Positions 5,036 to 22,615 of a DNA stretch of 24,000 nucleotides are shown here, in pieces. The notes below the pieces were generated by a model. It was not told where the DNA came from. It was given only the letters and a program-made list of their open reading frames with translations, and searched no databases. Both the position numbers and the translations under genes were made by a program. The stretch comes from Aeromonas enteropelogenes (GTDB lineage: Bacteria > Pseudomonadota > Gammaproteobacteria > Enterobacterales > Aeromonadaceae): positions 239,625 to 263,624 of the forward strand of contig NZ_CDCG01000037.1 in the NCBI RefSeq assembly GCF_000819845.1, in the 5' to 3' direction. Each line of letters opens with the position of its first letter. Within the stretch, counting starts at the first letter, position 1.

Positions 5036-5524
5036 ATGGAAAACATGTTTGAAAGATTGATGTATGCATCGCGCTGGATCATGGCCCCCATCTACCTGGG
5101 ACTCAGCCTTATCCTGCTGGCACTGGGCCTGAAGTTCTTTCAGGAGATCATCCATATCCTGCCGAATATCTTCGCAATGAAAGAGGTGGATCTGGTGCTG
5201 GTCACCCTGTCACTGATCGATATCACCCTGGTGGGGGGGCTCATCGTGATGGTGATGTTTTCCGGTTATGAGAACTTCGTCTCGCGCCTCGACGTGGGGG
5301 ATGAGAGCGACAAGCTGGTATGGCTCGGCAAGCTCGACGCCGGTTCCCTGAAGAACAAGGTGGCCGCCTCCATCGTCGCCATCTCGTCCATTCACCTGCT
5401 CAAGGTGTTTATGAATGCCGAAAATATCCCCAATGACAAGATCAAATGGTACCTGTTGATCCATATCACCTTTGTCGTCTCCGCCTTTGCCATGGGCTAT
5501 CTGGACAAGCTGACCCGCAAATAA
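5036..5524 (+). CDS. yqhA: UPF0114 inner-membrane protein YqhA
   Basis: [46 protein letters not shown]... matches the conserved N-terminus of E. coli YqhA (MYASRWLLAPxYxGLSL...LKFFQEIIH) along the whole 162 aa. Confidence 0.85.
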
Positions 5525-5575: not shown

Positions 5576-5911
5576 CTCTTCCCCCTTTCACCGTATCCAG
5601 ACGTCCCACCGACCCATTCAGGCAGCAACCCAGCCCGTGTTTAATTTATTGATCAACGACTGATTATTGCCCATTGCCTCTTCCAGAAAAGGCTTCATTC
5701 GGTATCATGGTCGCTCGACAAAGCACCGCATCCAAAGGCTCGCCATGCGCCTTCTCAGCTATGCCGATTTTGTCCGAAGCATATTGGTTCATAACAGCAG
5801 TGTGGGAGCTGTAACTCAGGGGCGGTAGCATGACCGTAGTGAGTAATCCGTGATGACAAATGTTAAACCTTGAAGGATATGCATCCTTTATACCTATAAA
5901 AGCTCTTTATT

Positions 5912-12254: not shown

Positions 12255-13451
12255 ATGAAACAGTCCCCCCTGCTGTTGATGATGTTGACCCCGCTGACTT
12301 GCTGGGGTGCCACCGCAGAAGAAGAGGCGTTGCAACAACAGCTGGATCAGTTGCGCCAGCAGCTGATCCAGCAAAACCAGGCGCTCCACCAGCTGCAGGC
12401 CAGACTGGAAGCCGTCAAGAGCAGCGGAGTAACCGCGACGGGCACCGGCACGGCTGCCGTGACACCGGCCAAGGCACCGCAGGAGCCGGACCGTCGCAGC
12501 CCGGAGCCCGGTCGCAGCACCGAAGATCTGCTGCTGGAGCAGCACAACGTCTTCGATCGCGCCCTGACCTTCGACCTCGGCCTCTCCTACCAGCACTACA
12601 ACCGCAAGGATCTCGCCCTGCGCGGCTTTCTCGCGCTGGATGCCATCTTTCTTGGCGAGATCAATCTGGACAGGGTGCGATCCGATCAGATCAGTGCCGA
12701 TCTGGTGACCCGCTACACCCTCAACGATCGCTGGCAGCTGGAGCTCGCCATTCCCTACCTGTTTCGCAGCAGCAACTACCAGAGCACCGGCAAGGATAAC
12801 TCCAGCCGCAGTTTCGAGGAGCAGAGCGTCAGCGACGGGGGCCTCGGCGATCTCAGCCTCGCCGTCTACTACCGGGTCATGGCCGAAGACGAGGAGTGGC
12901 CGGATCTGGTGTGGAATGTCAGGGTCAAGGCACCGACCGGCAAGGACCCCTATGGCATCGAGCTCGACACCTCGGCATCGGGCAACCTGATGACCCCGAA
13001 GGAGCTCGCCACCGGCAACGGGCTCTGGCAGCTGTCGACCGGTTTCTCGCTGGTCAGGACCCTGGATCCCGCCATCCTGTTCGCCAACATCAACTATGGC
13101 CACAGCCTCAAGGAGGATTTTGACGACATCTCCTATCAACCGGGGCAGCAACCGGGCAGCGTCCAACTGGGTGACTGGTTTGAATACGGGCTCGGGGTCG
13201 CATTCGCCCTAAACGAGCGTTTCAGCCTCTCCTTCAACATCAACCAGCGCATCACCCGCGAGTCCGAGCAGGGGGCGGAAGGGTTCGGGATGGAGAAGGT
13301 CATCGGCTCGGATGCCAACGCGGCGAGTTTTGGCATGGGTTCGACATGGGCCATCACCGACCGGCTCTCCATGGTGGTCAACTGGTCGGCAGGGCTCACC
13401 ACGGATGCTCCCGACTACAGTATCGGGATCCGTTTTCCTTACCGCTTCTAG
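12255..13451 (+). CDS. outer-membrane beta-barrel protein with N-terminal coiled coil, FapF-like (putative amyloid secretion channel)
   Basis: Signal peptide MKQSPLLLMMLTPLTCWGA. A Q/L heptad-like segment EEEALQQQLDQLRQQLIQQNQALHQLQARLEAVK is followed by a T/P/A-rich linker. After that comes an alternating-hydrophobic strand pattern ending ...YSIGIRFPYRF, with a C-terminal Phe as in OM barrels. Confidence 0.7.
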   Translation: MKQSPLLLMMLTPLTCWGATAEEEALQQQLDQLRQQLIQQNQALHQLQARLEAVKSSGVTATGTGTAAVTPAKAPQEPDRRSPEPGRSTEDLLLEQHNVFDRALTFDLGLSYQHYNRKDLALRGFLALDAIFLGEINLDRVRSDQISADLVTRYTLNDRWQLELAIPYLFRSSNYQSTGKDNSSRSFEEQSVSDGGLGDLSLAVYYRVMAEDEEWPDLVWNVRVKAPTGKDPYGIELDTSASGNLMTPKELATGNGLWQLSTGFSLVRTLDPAILFANINYGHSLKEDFDDISYQPGQQPGSVQLGDWFEYGLGVAFALNERFSLSFNINQRITRESEQGAEGFGMEKVIGSDANAASFGMGSTWAITDRLSMVVNWSAGLTTDAPDYSIGIRFPYRF

Positions 13452-18778: not shown

Positions 18779-18803
18779 CCAGCATGAAAGTGACCGCTCA
18801 CCA

Positions 18804-18816
18804 GTGCAAATAAATG
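18804..18816 (+). promoter_or_regulatory. GTGCAAATAAATG box, leader copy 1
   Basis: See 15585..15597. It begins 26 nt after the gabT stop. Confidence 0.4.
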
Positions 18817-18837
18817 CAATTTTGCCCCTTTTATCGC

Positions 18838-18866
18838 TTGTCAAGGGGGCCCTGCAAATGCACAAT
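18838..18866 (+). promoter_or_regulatory. sigma-70-like promoter candidate, leader copy 1
   Basis: TTGTCA-N17-CACAAT. Copy 2 has the same hexamer positions and the same 17-nt spacing. The following CGCGGCCA is also conserved. Confidence 0.45.
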
Positions 18867-18878
18867 GCGCGGCCACTG

Positions 18879-18916
18879 AAAGTACCGGTGCAGCCCAGCG
18901 GCATCGGTACTTTTTT
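18879..18916 (+). terminator. intrinsic-terminator-like hairpin + T6, leader copy 1
   Basis: GTACCGGTGC (18882-18891), a 9-nt loop and GCATCGGTAC (18901-18910) form 10 bp including one G-U pair. The stem is flanked by AAA and TTTTTT. Confidence 0.6.
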
Positions 18917-18967
18917 CACAGTGAACAAATCCATAAACGAGGCCGGATCACCCCCGGAAAAGATAGC

Positions 18968-18985
18968 GAGATTGGCAGCAATCTC
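18968..18985 (+). promoter_or_regulatory. 7-4-7 palindrome/hairpin, leader copy 1
   Basis: GAGATTG-GCAG-CAATCTC lies 28 nt upstream of the uORF ATG. The arms are identical in copy 2. Confidence 0.4.
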
Positions 18986-19013
18986 CCGACACCAAGTCTT
19001 AGTGAGGAACAAC

Positions 19014-19145
19014 ATGGGGCATGTCAATGCTTTCCTGCCGGCCCTGGCCGGTGCGCGCCACCCTGGCGCCCTTGATCCCCGGGCCACTCTCCCGGTTTCG
19101 TTGATGGACCGTGCCACCCCGGCACTGCGTGAGGAACAGGCATGA
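19014..19145 (+). CDS. 43-codon upstream ORF (candidate leader peptide) translationally coupled to puuP copy 1
   Basis: GAGGA lies 5 nt upstream of the ATG. The product is [43 protein letters not shown]. The stop TGA (19143-19145) overlaps the puuP ATG (19142-19144) as ATGA. The N-terminal 21 residues are 15/21 identical to the uORF of copy 2. Confidence 0.5.
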
Positions 19146-20494
19146 TGACAACCCCGGCGGTTGGTCTGAAAAAGACCCTGAAACTCTGGCAGGTCGTGGT
19201 CATGGGCCTGGCTTACCTCACTCCCATGGCAGTGTTCGACACCTTCGGCATCGTCACCGAGATCACCGACGGCCATGTGCCGACGGCCTATCTGTTTGCC
19301 CTGATGGGCATGCTGTTCACCGCCCTGAGCTATGGCCATCTGGTACGCAAGTTCCCGTCGGCCGGTTCTGCCTATACCTATGCCCAGAAGGTGTTTCACC
19401 CCTATGTGGGCTTCATGGTGGGCTGGACCTCCCTGCTCGACTACATGTTCATGCCGATGATCAACATGCTGCTGGCCAAGATCTATCTGGAGGCCCTGTT
19501 CCCGAACGTGGAGCCCTGGACCTACATCTTTGGTCTGGCCGCCGTGATGACGGCCCTCAACCTGCGCGGCATCAAGCTGGTGGCCAACTTCAACAGCCTG
19601 ATCGTCATGATGCAGTTCAGCATCATCGCCGTCTTCATCGGCCTCATCGCCTGGGGCGTCTACAACGGTGAAGGGTTGGGAACCGTGGCCAGCAGCCGTC
19701 CCTTCTTCTCCGAGCAGATGCACATCAACCCCCTGCTGACCGGCGCCTCCATCCTGTGTCTGTCGTTCCTGGGTTTTGATGCCATCAGCACCCTGTCGGA
19801 AGAGACCCCGGACGCGGATCGGGTGATCCCCCGCGCCATCGTGCTGACCGCGCTGATCGGCGGCGTGCTGTTCGTCACCACCTCCTACTTCCTGCAGCTG
19901 TTCTTCCCGGACATCTCCCGCTTCCAGCAACCGGATGCGGTCCTGCCCGAGATTGCCCTCTACGTGGGTGGCAAGCTGTTCCAGGCGGTGGTGCTGGTGT
20001 GCACGACAGTGGCAGTGCTGGCCTCGGGGCTGGCCTCCCACGCCGGCGTGTCGCGCCTGCTCTACGTGATGGGTCGGGATCGCGCCCTGCCTGCGCGCTT
20101 CTTCTCCTATATCCATCCGAAGTGGCAGACCCCGGCGCTCAACGTGCTGCTGGTGGGCACCCTGGCCCTCTCCGCCGTGTCGTTTGATCTGGAGATCGCC
20201 CTGGCCCTGATCAACTTCGGCGCCCTGGTGGCCTTCACCTTCGTCAACCTGGCGGTCATTGCCCACTTCTATGTGAAGCTCGGTCGCAACAAGACCCTGA
20301 AGGATCACCTGCTGTTCCTGGTGATGCCCCTGTGCGGCGCCGCCTGCATCGGGGTACTGTGGCTCAACCTCGAGCCCTCCTCCTTCGAGCTGGGGCTGAT
20401 CTGGGCGGCGCTCGGTGCCCTCTACCTGTTCCTGCGTCTGGTGGTGTTCCGCATTCCGCTGCACACCGCCGACAAGGTCGAGGTGGCCCAGTAA
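19142..20494 (+). CDS. puuP: putrescine importer, APC-superfamily permease (PuuP/PlaP family), copy 1
   Basis: 450 aa. [93 protein letters not shown] and [10 protein letters not shown] are near-identical to E. coli PuuP motifs from memory. Confidence 0.9.
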
Positions 20495-20522
20495 GTCTGT
20501 GCGAGCATGAATGTACTGAATC

Positions 20523-20548
20523 AAAAGGAGCCTTTAGGCTCCTTTTTT
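20523..20548 (+). terminator. rho-independent terminator of puuP copy 1
   Basis: AAAAGGAGCC-TTTA-GGCTCCTTTT followed by TT, located 29 nt after the stop. Confidence 0.85.
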
Positions 20549-20920
20549 CATGCCTGATTGAAAGCCTGATAAAAAATCCCTTTGTACTCAATTCCCTGGC
20601 TTGCCCCTCTTGCCCCCACCACCCATGACCAGAAACGGTGTTCACCCGGATAAAGTGACCATTTATTCGCGCCTCTCTCCTCCCTTGTGCCGGTCGCCAG
20701 AGCGGGGGCCATGCACCAGACAGGCCCCCTGCCAACAAACCGGAAGAGGCCACCCGGCCCGGGCGCCTCTTCCTGTGTCAATGCGCCCTGCAGCGGCGAA
20801 ATGGCGAGATTCCGTACTGGATGAGAGCGAGGTTCCCTCATCCAACGTGACCTGAAAAACGGGGAGAAAGGCTGCATGATGGCAACAGGGGGAGAGTGAT
20901 CGCTTACCTGTCAAAGCAGA

Positions 20921-20933
20921 GTGCAAAAAAATG
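20921..20933 (+). promoter_or_regulatory. GTGCAAAAAAATG box, leader copy 2
   Basis: Same position relative to the -35-like hexamer as in copy 1 (box start to TTGTCA = 34 nt in both). Confidence 0.4.
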
Positions 20934-20954
20934 CGATCCGGCGCCCATTATTGC

Positions 20955-20983
20955 TTGTCACGGGGGGGCCACGAATGCAAAAT
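20955..20983 (+). promoter_or_regulatory. sigma-70-like promoter candidate, leader copy 2
   Basis: TTGTCA-N17-CAAAAT. The spacer contains a G7 run (20962-20968). Confidence 0.45.
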
Positions 20984-20996
20984 ACGCGGCCAATTG

Positions 20997-21034
20997 AAGA
21001 ACCGATGTTCCTTGCAACATCGGTTCTTTCTTTT
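20997..21034 (+). terminator. intrinsic-terminator-like hairpin + T-run, leader copy 2
   Basis: AAGAACCGATGTT-CCTTGC-AACATCGGTTCTT forms a perfect 13-bp stem followed by TCTTTT. Confidence 0.6.
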
Positions 21035-21087
21035 GGGCAGAACACCAAACCAACCACAGAGGCCGGAAACCTTCCGGAAGTGATACC

Positions 21088-21105
21088 GAGATTGCCAACA
21101 ATCTC
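21088..21105 (+). promoter_or_regulatory. 7-4-7 palindrome/hairpin, leader copy 2
   Basis: GAGATTG-CCAA-CAATCTC lies 20 nt upstream of the uORF ATG. Confidence 0.4.
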
Positions 21106-21125
21106 CCGACGTTAAGAGGAAAAAA

Positions 21126-21266
21126 ATGGGGCGTTTCAATGCTTTCCTGCCGGCCAACACCGGTATGCGCCTCCCCGGCGCCCTTGATGTACAGGTCTGC
21201 GAATTTTTCGTCTCCCTGTGCGCGTTGCAAGCATGTGCTCCGGCACTGATTGAGGAGAAAGCGTAA
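21126..21266 (+). CDS. 46-codon upstream ORF (candidate leader peptide) translationally coupled to puuP copy 2
   Basis: AGAGGA lies 5 nt upstream of the ATG. The product is [46 protein letters not shown]. The stop TAA (21264-21266) overlaps the puuP ATG (21266-21268) as TAATG. It is below the ORF-track length cut-off, so I translated it by hand. Confidence 0.5.
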
Positions 21267-22615
21267 TGGCATCTCAAGGCGCCAAGCTGCTCAAGACCCT
21301 GACCCTGACTCAGGTTATCGTAATGGGTCTCGCCTATCTGACCCCCATGGCCGTATTCGACACCTTCGCCATCGTCGGTGACATCACCGAAGGCCGGGTC
21401 GCCACCGCCTACCTGCTGGCGCTGGGCGGCATCCTGCTGACCGCCCTCAGCTATGGCCACCTGGTGCGCAAATTCCCCTCCGCGGGCTCTGCCTATACCT
21501 ATGCCCAGAAGGTGTTCAACCCCTACGTCGGTTTCATGGTCGGTTGGTCATCCCTGCTCGACTACATGTTCATGCCGATGATCAACATCCTGCTGGCCAA
21601 GATCTACCTGACCGCCATGTTCCCGGGTGTCGATCCCTGGATCTTCATCTTCGGCCTGGTGACCGTGATGACCTTCCTCAACCTGCGCGGTATCAACCTG
21701 GTGGCCAACTTCAACGGCGCCATCGTCTTTATCCAGCTCGCCATCATCGTCGTCTTCATTGGCCTGATGGGCTGGGGCCTCTACCATGGAGAGGGTGCCG
21801 CCACCCTGATGAGCAGCCGGCCGTTCCACTTCGAGAGCGCCAGCATGGTGCCACTCTTTACCGGTGCGACCATCCTCTGCTTCTCTTTCCTCGGTTTCGA
21901 CGGCCTCAGTTCCCTCAGTGAAGAGACCCCGAACGCCGGCAAGGTGATCCCCAAGGCGATCGTGCTGACCGCCCTCATCGGTGGCGTCATCTTCGTGGTG
22001 GTCTCCTACTGCCTGCAGCTCTATTTCCCGGATCTGGCCCGCTTCAAGGAGCCGGACGCCGTGCTGCCCGAGATCGCTCTCTACGTGGGCGGCACCCTGT
22101 TCCAGAGCATCGTACTGGTGTGCACCACGGTCGCCGTACTGGCCTCCGGCATGGCGGCCCACGCCGGTGTCTCCCGCATCCTCTACGTGATGGGCCGCGA
22201 TCGCATGATCCCGGAGCGGGTGTTTGGTTACATTCACCCCAAATACCGCACCCCGGCCATCAACGTGCTACTGGTGGGCGCCCTGGCCCTCTCCGCGGTG
22301 TCGTTCGATCTGGACATGGCGCTGGCGCTGGTGAACTTCGGTGCCCTGGTGGCCTTCACCTTCGTCAACCTGTCGGTCATCGGCCAATTCTGGGTCCGCG
22401 AAAAGCGCAACAAGAGCCTGAAAGATCACCTGATCTACCTGCTGCTGCCGCTGCTTGGCGCCGCCACCATCGGCGCCCTGTGGATCAACCTGGAGCAGAG
22501 CTCCCTGGAGCTGGGTCTGATCTGGGCTGGCCTCGGCGTCACCTACCTGTTCCTGCGTCTGGCGGTGTTCCGCATCCCGTTCCGCCAGTACGAAGAGGCG
22601 ACCGACGCTCAATAA
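21266..22615 (+). CDS. puuP: putrescine importer, APC-superfamily permease (PuuP/PlaP family), copy 2
   Basis: 449 aa, collinear with copy 1 over the full length with no indels visible by eye. It carries the same PuuP motifs ([44 protein letters not shown]). Confidence 0.9.

Follow-up and report, generated by a model that had tools for sequence, protein, structure and literature searches.

PuuP/PlaP-family importer genes and the reading frames ahead of them

We analysed a 24,000-nucleotide (nt) stretch of the Aeromonas enteropelogenes genome (contig NZ_CDCG01000037.1 of assembly GCF_000819845.1, positions 239,625 to 263,624 of the forward strand), hereafter the window, in which two importer genes of the PuuP/PlaP family stand in tandem and each is preceded by a short upstream open reading frame (uORF) that ends on the importer's start codon. 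The genes 5′ of the importers (FAD oxidoreductase, puuR, gabD and gabT) make this a neighbourhood of putrescine and gamma-aminobutyric acid (GABA) catabolism. The original prediction for this DNA had described the two uORFs and had suggested that they might be polyamine-responsive leader peptides or devices that couple importer translation to their own. The features concerned, numbered from the first letter of the window, are these.

19004 to 19008, forward strand: Shine-Dalgarno (SD) sequence GAGGA of uORF A, read from the sequence, 5 nt before the ATG; an SD is kept in all leaders
19014 to 19145, forward strand: uORF A, 43 codons plus stop (TGA, 19143 to 19145); positional orthologue of Escherichia coli yoeI
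19131 to 19136, forward strand: SD sequence GAGGAA of importer A, identical with the 'EE' codon pair inside uORF A
19142 to 20494, forward strand: importer A, PuuP/PlaP-family APC importer by its NCBIfam APC matches; likely start ATG 19145
21115 to 21120, forward strand: SD sequence AGAGGA of uORF B, 5 nt before ATG 21126
21126 to 21266, forward strand: uORF B, 46 codons plus stop (TAA, 21264 to 21266)
21252 to 21257, forward strand: SD sequence GAGGAG of importer B, inside uORF B
21266 to 22615, forward strand: importer B, PuuP/PlaP-family APC importer by its NCBIfam APC matches; start ATG 21266 to 21268

Both short ORFs and their strong SD sequences (GAGGA-N5-ATG at 19014 and AGAGGA-N5-ATG at 21126) were present as predicted, and the two peptides agree at 15 of the 21 N-terminal residues and at 6 of the 9 C-terminal ones, again as claimed. 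The importer's SD lies within the uORF in both copies, and in both the uORF stop overlaps the importer start. The overlap in copy B is TAATG (21264 to 21268), in agreement with the prediction. An overlap is likewise found in copy A (TGATG/ATGA, 19142 to 19147), but not, probably, in the form ATGA that had been proposed for it: because orthologues have CATAATGGCG where copy A has CATGATGACA, the conserved start of importer A is probably the second ATG, at 19145, which would give an overlap of TGATG like that of copy B.

The importers are 72.6% identical to each other, and identity to the importers of A. veronii, A. fluvialis and others is 91–93%. Both show 63–65% identity to E. coli PlaP and to E. 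coli PuuP alike. By protein identity alone they are not assignable to either; it is their leaders, compared below, that mark both as belonging to the plaP/yoeI type.

The leaders are homologues of the E. coli STnc240-yoeI-plaP leader

The likeness between the two copies extends beyond the uORFs, since leader A aligns with leader B over about 330 nt, beginning about 230 nt 5′ of the uORF ATG. The spacer of about 420 nt between importer A and leader B (20495 to 20916) has no homology to leader A, and gave weak sub-threshold Rfam matches to hairpin-rich small RNA (sRNA) models and nothing else.

The original prediction knew of no such element for puuP. In the E. coli K-12 annotation, however, yoeI (b4678, 20 amino acids, MGQFFAYATVITVKENDHVA) overlaps the start of plaP (b2014) by 11 nt, and ymjE (b4742, 54 amino acids) overlaps the start of puuP (b1296) by 11 nt. 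The yoeI-plaP leader is composed, in order, of CTTGTCA, 17 nt, CACAAT and GCGCCGC; a hairpin with a U run; a linker rich in C and A; GAGGCCGG-loop-CCGGA-N-GATA; another hairpin; GAGGAA; and the reading frame ATGGGGCA...TGCTT, with a hairpin about 24 nt into the uORF. Both window leaders carry the elements of this leader in the same order. They are listed here with transcription start sites (TSS) placed by analogy with the E. coli promoter rrnB P1.

18838 to 18866, forward strand: promoter of leader A, TTGTCA-17 nt-CACAAT, followed by the GC-rich discriminator GCGCGGCC; predicted TSS near 18875
18878 to 18916, forward strand: promoter-proximal hairpin and U run of leader A, the U run at 18911 to 18916, −22.5 kcal/mol, z −5.4; STnc240 homologue, resembling an intrinsic terminator
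18939 to 18965, forward strand: P1 motif of leader A, GAGGCCGG-loop-CCGGAAAAGATA, stems 18943 to 18946 and 18954 to 18957
18968 to 18985, forward strand: P2 hairpin of leader A, GAGATTG-GCAG-CAATCTC, −8.8 kcal/mol, z −2.8
19037 to 19052, forward strand: P3 hairpin in uORF A, GCCGGC-CCTG-GCCGGT, −10.6 kcal/mol, coding for 'PALAG'
19055 to 19069, forward strand: P4 hairpin in uORF A, GCGCC-ACCCT-GGCGC, coding for 'RHPGA'
19111 to 19125, forward strand: P6 hairpin in uORF A, GTGCC-ACCCC-GGCAC, directly 5′ of the importer SD
20955 to 20983, forward strand: promoter of leader B, TTGTCA-17 nt-CAAAAT, conserved; predicted TSS near 20992
20996 to 21034, forward strand: promoter-proximal hairpin and U run of leader B, the U run at 21027 to 21034, −18.9 kcal/mol, z −6.1; STnc240 homologue
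21059 to 21085, forward strand: P1 motif of leader B, GAGGCCGG-loop-CCGGAAGTGATA, by pattern match and alignment
21088 to 21105, forward strand: P2 hairpin of leader B, GAGATTG-CCAA-CAATCTC, by alignment

A covariance model, R1, made from 38 Aeromonas-type leaders with P1, P2 and P3 annotated, matched the E. coli leader with 38.3 bits (E 1e-11) although it contains Aeromonas leaders only; it also recovered the leaders of Shewanella, Lonsdalea and deep-branching Aeromonadaceae, and it matched none of the ymjE-type loci. Element order and model matches identify the window leaders as DNA-level homologues of the yoeI-plaP leader and the window uORFs as new, divergent members of the annotated yoeI leader-ORF family.

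The peptides themselves do not reveal this relationship. E. coli YoeI is unrelated to them past MG...A(F/Y), and the hidden Markov model for YoeI (NCBIfam NF033439, small_mem_YoeI), which gives E. coli YoeI 60.8 bits, matched neither window peptide even with E allowed up to 10; nor did Pfam PF23692 (ymjE-type) match them. For annotation, such uORFs in Aeromonas and Shewanella escape protein similarity and are detectable with the leader RNA model. The E. coli and window systems share the short ORF (ATGGGGCA in E. coli) behind an SD (GAGGAA there), its overlap with the start of a PuuP/PlaP-family importer, the promoter, the terminator, P1 and P2. They differ in that yoeI has 20 codons and an 11-nt overlap, whereas uORFs A and B are 43 and 46 codons long and overlap the importer start by 1 nt (by 4 nt in copy A with the first ATG as start), and in that the window, unlike E. 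coli, has two tandem leader-importer copies. In ymjE-puuP, too, the uORF end overlaps the start of a paralogous importer, but the leader sequence is unrelated and is not matched by R1.

No match at the gathering score, and no riboswitch, was found when the leaders were scanned with Rfam 15, and a scan by E-value returned only sub-threshold STnc240 (RF02074): leader B matched at 20968 to 21035 (38.2 bits, E 1e-4) and leader A at 18850 to 18919 (25.9 bits), both below the gathering score of 55. The promoter-terminator segment of E. coli yoeI-plaP is STnc240 at 68.2 bits, above that score. In the yoeI-plaP leader STnc240 spans the −10 region together with the promoter-proximal terminator (positions 5210 to 5284, reverse strand, of the E. 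coli locus L081), at the same relative position as the two window segments. In Salmonella it is flanked by yeeY and yoeI (PMC8825220); the window elements lie between an upstream gene and a yoeI-type uORF with its importer, end in a hairpin and U run, and differ from STnc240 as catalogued in being part of an importer leader and in scoring below the gathering threshold.

STnc240 has been published as an independent sRNA that arose from remnants of gabT (PMC8825220). In the window, the copy A element stands at least 72 nt 3′ of the gabT stop, and because leader B has the element with no gabT upstream, the comparison argues against STnc240 being a gabT 3′-end remnant and calls the published origin into question. 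Two orphan annotations of E. coli and Salmonella, yoeI as a small membrane protein and STnc240 as an sRNA, appear to be parts of one leader, whose conservation reaches from Enterobacterales to Aeromonas and Shewanella.

The frame is open up to the importer start in every leader

Searching with the P1 pattern yielded 75 leaders from 53 loci (numbered with the prefix L where single ones are named), in Aeromonas (usually as two tandem copies), Shewanella, Pseudaeromonas, other Aeromonadaceae, Lonsdalea and E. coli. The uORF was open from a conserved SD and ATG in all 75, with a length of 20–80 codons, and its end fell between −8 and +3 relative to the importer ATG in all 75, with junctions such as ATGA, TAATG/TGATG, TGAATG and ATG-N5-TAA. 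Across these leaders there was no stop in frame, while frame +1 contained 111 and frame +2 contained 103. Reading frame and overlap geometry are therefore preserved as the original prediction had stated, and the frameshifts or in-frame stops that it had named as evidence to the contrary were not encountered in any of the 75.

Could such frames be the untranslated by-product of GC-rich RNA structure? Open frames are fairly common in sequence of this kind, and in dinucleotide shuffles of 20 divergent representatives the chance of an open frame was 0.06–0.66 per leader; the product of these probabilities, however, is about 1e-10. A by-product would have to stay open in 75 of 75 leaders, keep its SD and ATG and stop on the importer ATG each time, despite indels and in unrelated sequences whose other frames are rich in stops, and yoeI is annotated as protein-coding in E. 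coli K-12. We find this explanation hardly credible. The pattern instead indicates that selection keeps the uORF open and its end on the importer start. With the stop on the importer start and the importer SD inside an ORF that is open throughout, these uORFs are well positioned for translational coupling, the second of the two roles originally suggested for them.

In Lonsdalea (L045–L049), a start-stop mini-ORF, ATGTGA, stands just 5′ of the ATGGGG of an 80-codon uORF, about 62–70 nt past P1, and the uORF ends in the junction ...CATGTCGCATAA, as in E. coli.

Conservation inside the uORF follows the RNA, not the peptide

In seven groups of equal-length uORFs, the variable columns were spread evenly over the three codon positions, and the ratio of nonsynonymous to synonymous variation (pN/pS) was 0.48–1.35 in frame versus 0.69–1.64 in the off-frames. 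Importer controls (the first ~40 codons) gave 0.00–0.12 in 4 of 5 usable cases; the exceptions among the controls were A43, which was mis-phased (some copies read ATGATG and others TAATG), and Lonsdalea, with only 15 nt. Codons 2–13 of the uORF had a pN/pS of 0.85 versus 0.82 and 0.86 in the off-frames, and even conserved codons were nearly free of synonymous variants (Gly2 GGG in 63/63, Ala6 GCU in 48/52, Pro9 CCG in 59/61). When 80 orthologous loci were searched for the peptide motif NAF[LIMV]P, almost nothing was returned, a first sign that the peptide is not conserved. The original prediction had proposed codon-aware conservation as a check on a peptide function; by this measure the uORF equals its off-frames, and what is preserved is the frame itself. 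The negative result is informative because the same test detects peptide selection in the ymjE-type uORF, whose N-terminal MFKYPHGEG gave 0.32 versus 1.02 off-frame.

What is conserved within the uORF has a counterpart in the RNA. The stretch 'LPAxAG' falls on hairpin P3 (CCGG-loop-CCGG), whose loop holds the variable x codon; 'RxPGA' falls on P4 (GCGCC...GGCGC); 'PAL' is the 3′ arm of P6; and 'EE' is the importer SD. P3 keeps its position, about 24 nt past the uORF ATG, across taxa while its stems differ (ACGGU/ACCGU in E. coli, CUCCG/CGGAG in L026). It is partly variable, CCGG being replaced, judged by eye, by other stems in E. coli, Shewanella, L026 and L040; the P4 stem of L025 is GGUCG/CGACC instead. 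The conserved stretches of the uORF are thus accounted for by RNA hairpins and the importer SD, with no detectable selection at the amino-acid level, and a constraint on the RNA, which the original prediction had raised as a caveat, best describes the GGG and CCG codons and the EE codons that double as SD. The comparative data speak for YoeI-type ORFs being retained for their translation and not for their product.

These results bear directly on the first of the suggested roles, in which the nascent uORF peptide would stall the ribosome once putrescine or another polyamine had bound and thereby alter importer translation or the access of Rho, as in the analogy drawn to TnaC and SpeFL. The peptides of SpeFL and TnaC are conserved at or near the C-terminal stall site. 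In eukaryotes, polyamine-responsive uORFs (MAGDIS of AdoMetDC, uCC of AZIN1) exert feedback control in polyamine-pathway mRNAs through peptides whose sequence is essential; the window uORFs likewise belong to polyamine-pathway mRNAs but give no sign of an essential peptide sequence. Regulation by MdtU needs translation of its uORF, and its peptide, too, is conserved at or near the C-terminal stall site (PMC7815308). SpeFL, MdtU and TnaC resemble the window uORFs in lying upstream of polyamine or catabolic genes, but they act at a distance via Rho or rearrangement of the ribosome-binding site, whereas the window peptides are free of constraint and the uORF stops lie on the start of the next gene.

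An arrest peptide would suit a putrescine importer next to puuR, gabD and gabT, and stalling at the uORF stop would place the ribosome over the importer SD and ATG; in addition, an N-terminal pattern, MG-x-hydrophobic-x-A-F, recurs from E. coli to Aeromonas, and plaP of Dickeya is repressed by putrescine (PMC12039241). Against this, we found no amino-acid-level selection, N-terminal codons conserved without synonymous variation, a four-fold variation in length (20–80 codons), and a C-terminal part whose near-stop residues are fixed only where they spell the importer SD, while the pN/pS test did register selection on the peptide in the paralogous ymjE-type uORF and so is able to detect it. The analogy to TnaC and SpeFL consequently finds no support in sequence evolution, and we consider a polyamine-sensing arrest peptide possible but distinctly unlikely at this locus.

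Still less probable is a functional small (membrane) protein acting on or with the transporter. YoeI is called a membrane protein in NCBIfam NF033439, and PMC11630599 attributes the E. coli protein to a screen for small membrane proteins by Hemm et al. 2008. The window peptides, however, fail this model, show no purifying selection, belong to a family of 20 to 80 codons and, judged by eye, are not hydrophobic helices.

The ymjE-type uORF (Enterobacteriaceae L050–L079; E. coli L082, 3178 to 3345, reverse strand) has 55–70 codons and lies upstream of puuP proper. Its 11-nt overlap ATG-N5-TAA is kept in 30/30 leaders (29 fetched loci and E. coli), and its start overlaps a mini-ORF, ATG-AGA-TGA. 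With its N-terminus under amino-acid-level selection, unlike the window uORFs, it is on present comparisons the better arrest-peptide candidate. Polyproline occurs in several yoeI-type uORFs (L043, L044, L062, L027–L032) and in E. coli ymjE (L082), as AEPPGG, IPPA/IPPT and PPATDWTPPP. Such motifs could cause pausing dependent on elongation factor P (EF-P); in the yoeI type they coincide with GC-rich hairpins and may be a by-product.

Promoter, terminator and hairpins ahead of the uORF

Only two promoter-like sigma-70 sites were found between 18700 and 21400. Both are conserved, each stands directly 5′ of a terminator-like hairpin, and the promoter is kept in 75/75 leaders. The TTGTCA −35 hexamer and the GC-rich discriminator are common to both importer promoters and E. 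coli rrnB P1, and from the −10 hexamer through +5 rrnB P1 and promoter A are equal at 14/16 positions (AATGCGCGGCCACTGA against AATGCGCCACCACTGA; stretches compared, 18861 to 18879 and 20978 to 20996 of the window and 155 to 172 of L083). By analogy, promoters like rrnB P1 suggest sensitivity to guanosine tetraphosphate (ppGpp) and DksA, and hence stringent or growth-rate control.

Transcripts from both promoters must cross the terminator-like element at about +4 to +42. A terminator scanner missed both promoter-proximal hairpins, and folding confirmed them; their stem covaries across taxa. In P2, compensatory changes occurred at 7/7 pairs in the covariance-model alignment. That alignment was used because RNAalifold on a MAFFT alignment of whole leaders from all taxa, which was too gapped, returned no structure. 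The P1 stem CCGG/CCGG was identical in 59/59 aligned sequences, with a variable loop; the structure of P1 is a prediction, and its invariance points to sequence-specific recognition or alternative pairing. RNA covariation, which had been put forward as the counterpart to the codon-aware check, is accordingly seen in P2 but not in the invariant P1, with sub-threshold STnc240 as the sole outcome from Rfam. P1 was considered as a kink-turn (K-turn) or guanidine-II-like motif and rejected, on inspection only.

Two boxes lie 5′ of the −35 hexamer (18790 to 18818 and 20896 to 20935) in both leaders and in other Aeromonas and are absent from the E. coli leader: box 1 is a near-palindrome (GTGACCGCTCAC / GTGATCGCTTAC) and box 2 reads GTGCAAATAAATGCA / GTGCAAAAAAATGCG. 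Both might serve as operators, of the neighbouring PuuR for instance. An inverted repeat, GCCCC...GGGGGC, flanks the −35 hexamer (18824 to 18850), and in other lineages the promoter spacer contains G or C runs or small hairpins, e.g. CCCCatctGGGG in L025.

In Dickeya oryzae, putrescine represses plaP mRNA and a reporter of the upstream region; repression is dose-dependent at 0.02–0.1 mM putrescine, ppGpp represses too, and plaP expression rises 6.3-fold in a speA mutant (PMC12039241). The leader described here is a concrete candidate for this unexplained feedback. One way in which it might act is as an RNA sensor, the terminator and/or P1-P2 responding directly to polyamines or to a trans factor and so fixing the level of read-through or of initiation at the uORF, while the uORF only relays the signal. 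The invariance of P1 and its flanks in Enterobacterales, Aeromonadales and Shewanella despite variable loops, the retention of ACCG...CGGU in the terminator stem over the same range, and the feedback on the Dickeya upstream-region reporter (PMC12039241) all fit such a sensor. It is weakened by the lack of any Rfam riboswitch match, by the very invariance of P1, which leaves no covariation to prove its structure, by the failure to find an alternative antiterminator pairing and by the statement that plaP of Proteus mirabilis does not respond to putrescine (PMC12039241); a protein repressor at the promoter would be an equally possible source of the feedback. We regard the sensor as unlikely but as an alternative to be taken seriously.

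A broader proposal is that the whole leader, comprising the rrn-P1-like promoter, the STnc240 terminator, P1, P2 and the uORF, is a cis device for putrescine feedback on PlaP-type importers in Gammaproteobacteria. We offer it as a tentative speculation, possible but with the odds against it. If true, the leader would be a natural polyamine-responsive RNA or ribosome switch, and 'YoeI' and 'STnc240' would be two read-outs of one element.

A proposed translated leader that would couple importer synthesis to the uORF

In the reading that we favour, with a probability of roughly 60%, the window uORF is a leader ORF whose translation matters and whose product does not, and which couples or unmasks importer translation in a structured leader. 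Each importer gene has a leader of about 270 nt, inherited as a unit, that is a homologue of the E. coli STnc240-yoeI-plaP leader: a sigma-70 promoter whose GC-rich discriminator resembles that of rrn P1, a terminator-like hairpin a few nt past the predicted TSS, a C/A-rich linker, the invariant GGCCGG...CCGG of P1 with GATA, the covarying P2, a strong and apparently unstructured ribosome-binding site, and finally the uORF, running through a chain of GC-rich hairpins to its stop on the importer start codon. The uORF would be translated, and selection would keep translation going up to the importer start and not the peptide. Ribosomes would enter at the accessible uORF site, open the hairpins over or beside the importer SD, terminate on the importer ATG and re-initiate there, and importer synthesis would thus depend on uORF translation. 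Control would be exerted 5′ of the uORF, by the promoter (possibly ppGpp-sensitive), the promoter-proximal terminator and P1/P2. Homology, ORF preservation, overlap geometry, absent peptide-level selection and the covariation of P2 are shown by the data; the coupling, its positive sign and the controlling signals are inferred.

Predicted folding agrees with part of this scheme. The uORF initiation region was not more structured than shuffles (z > 0 in 19/22 representatives), and we rejected, on the same ground, the idea that a local hairpin sequesters the uORF SD. In absolute terms the GC-rich uORF body folds strongly (−0.24 to −0.43 kcal/mol per nt), and in 17/19 minimum-energy folds of representatives at least part of the importer SD was paired. 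The arrangement resembles that of coupled overlapping genes with ATGA and TAATG junctions, which share the stop-start overlap and the downstream SD inside the upstream ORF; it differs in that the upstream partner here is a leader ORF of dispensable sequence and not the gene of a functional protein. In E. coli, a yoeI-plaP construct fully restored PlaP-dependent toxin sensitivity, whereas plaP alone complemented less well (PMC11630599), an indirect hint that translation of the importer may depend on that of the uORF. In the literature on yoeI, ymjE, the plaP leader and STnc240 we found no mechanistic study, and the supplements of PMC7815308 mention none of these genes.

Several observations weigh against dependence of the importers on their uORFs. 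Compared with dinucleotide shuffles, the folding of the uORF body is only modestly stable (mean z −0.96). How far the importer SD is masked varies: in copy A the importer SD and ATG are predicted to be largely unpaired (0.65 and 0.97 in the whole-leader fold), and whole-leader minimum-energy folds disagree about it. The importers have strong SDs of their own, with which independent initiation is possible. Inspection found no antiterminator partner for the promoter-proximal terminator, and passage of transcription to the uORF is thus unexplained. Finally, a short functional peptide motif such as MGx-hydrophobic-x-A-F is possible, being compatible with the evolution of the sequence. A separate candidate for masking, pairing of the N-terminal segment of the uORF (UGCUUUCC) with the importer SD, gave duplex energies that barely beat those of shuffles (mean z −0.47).

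Other features of the window

The sole gathering-level Rfam match in the window was a JUMPstart RNA (RF01707) at 5795 to 5832 on the forward strand, with 41.4 bits versus a gathering score of 35. An ORF at 12255 to 13451, also on the forward strand, matched the fibril amyloid transporter FapF of NCBIfam with E 7e-117, below the curated cut-off, and a Fap functional-amyloid operon may, on this match, lie upstream of the puu/gab cluster.

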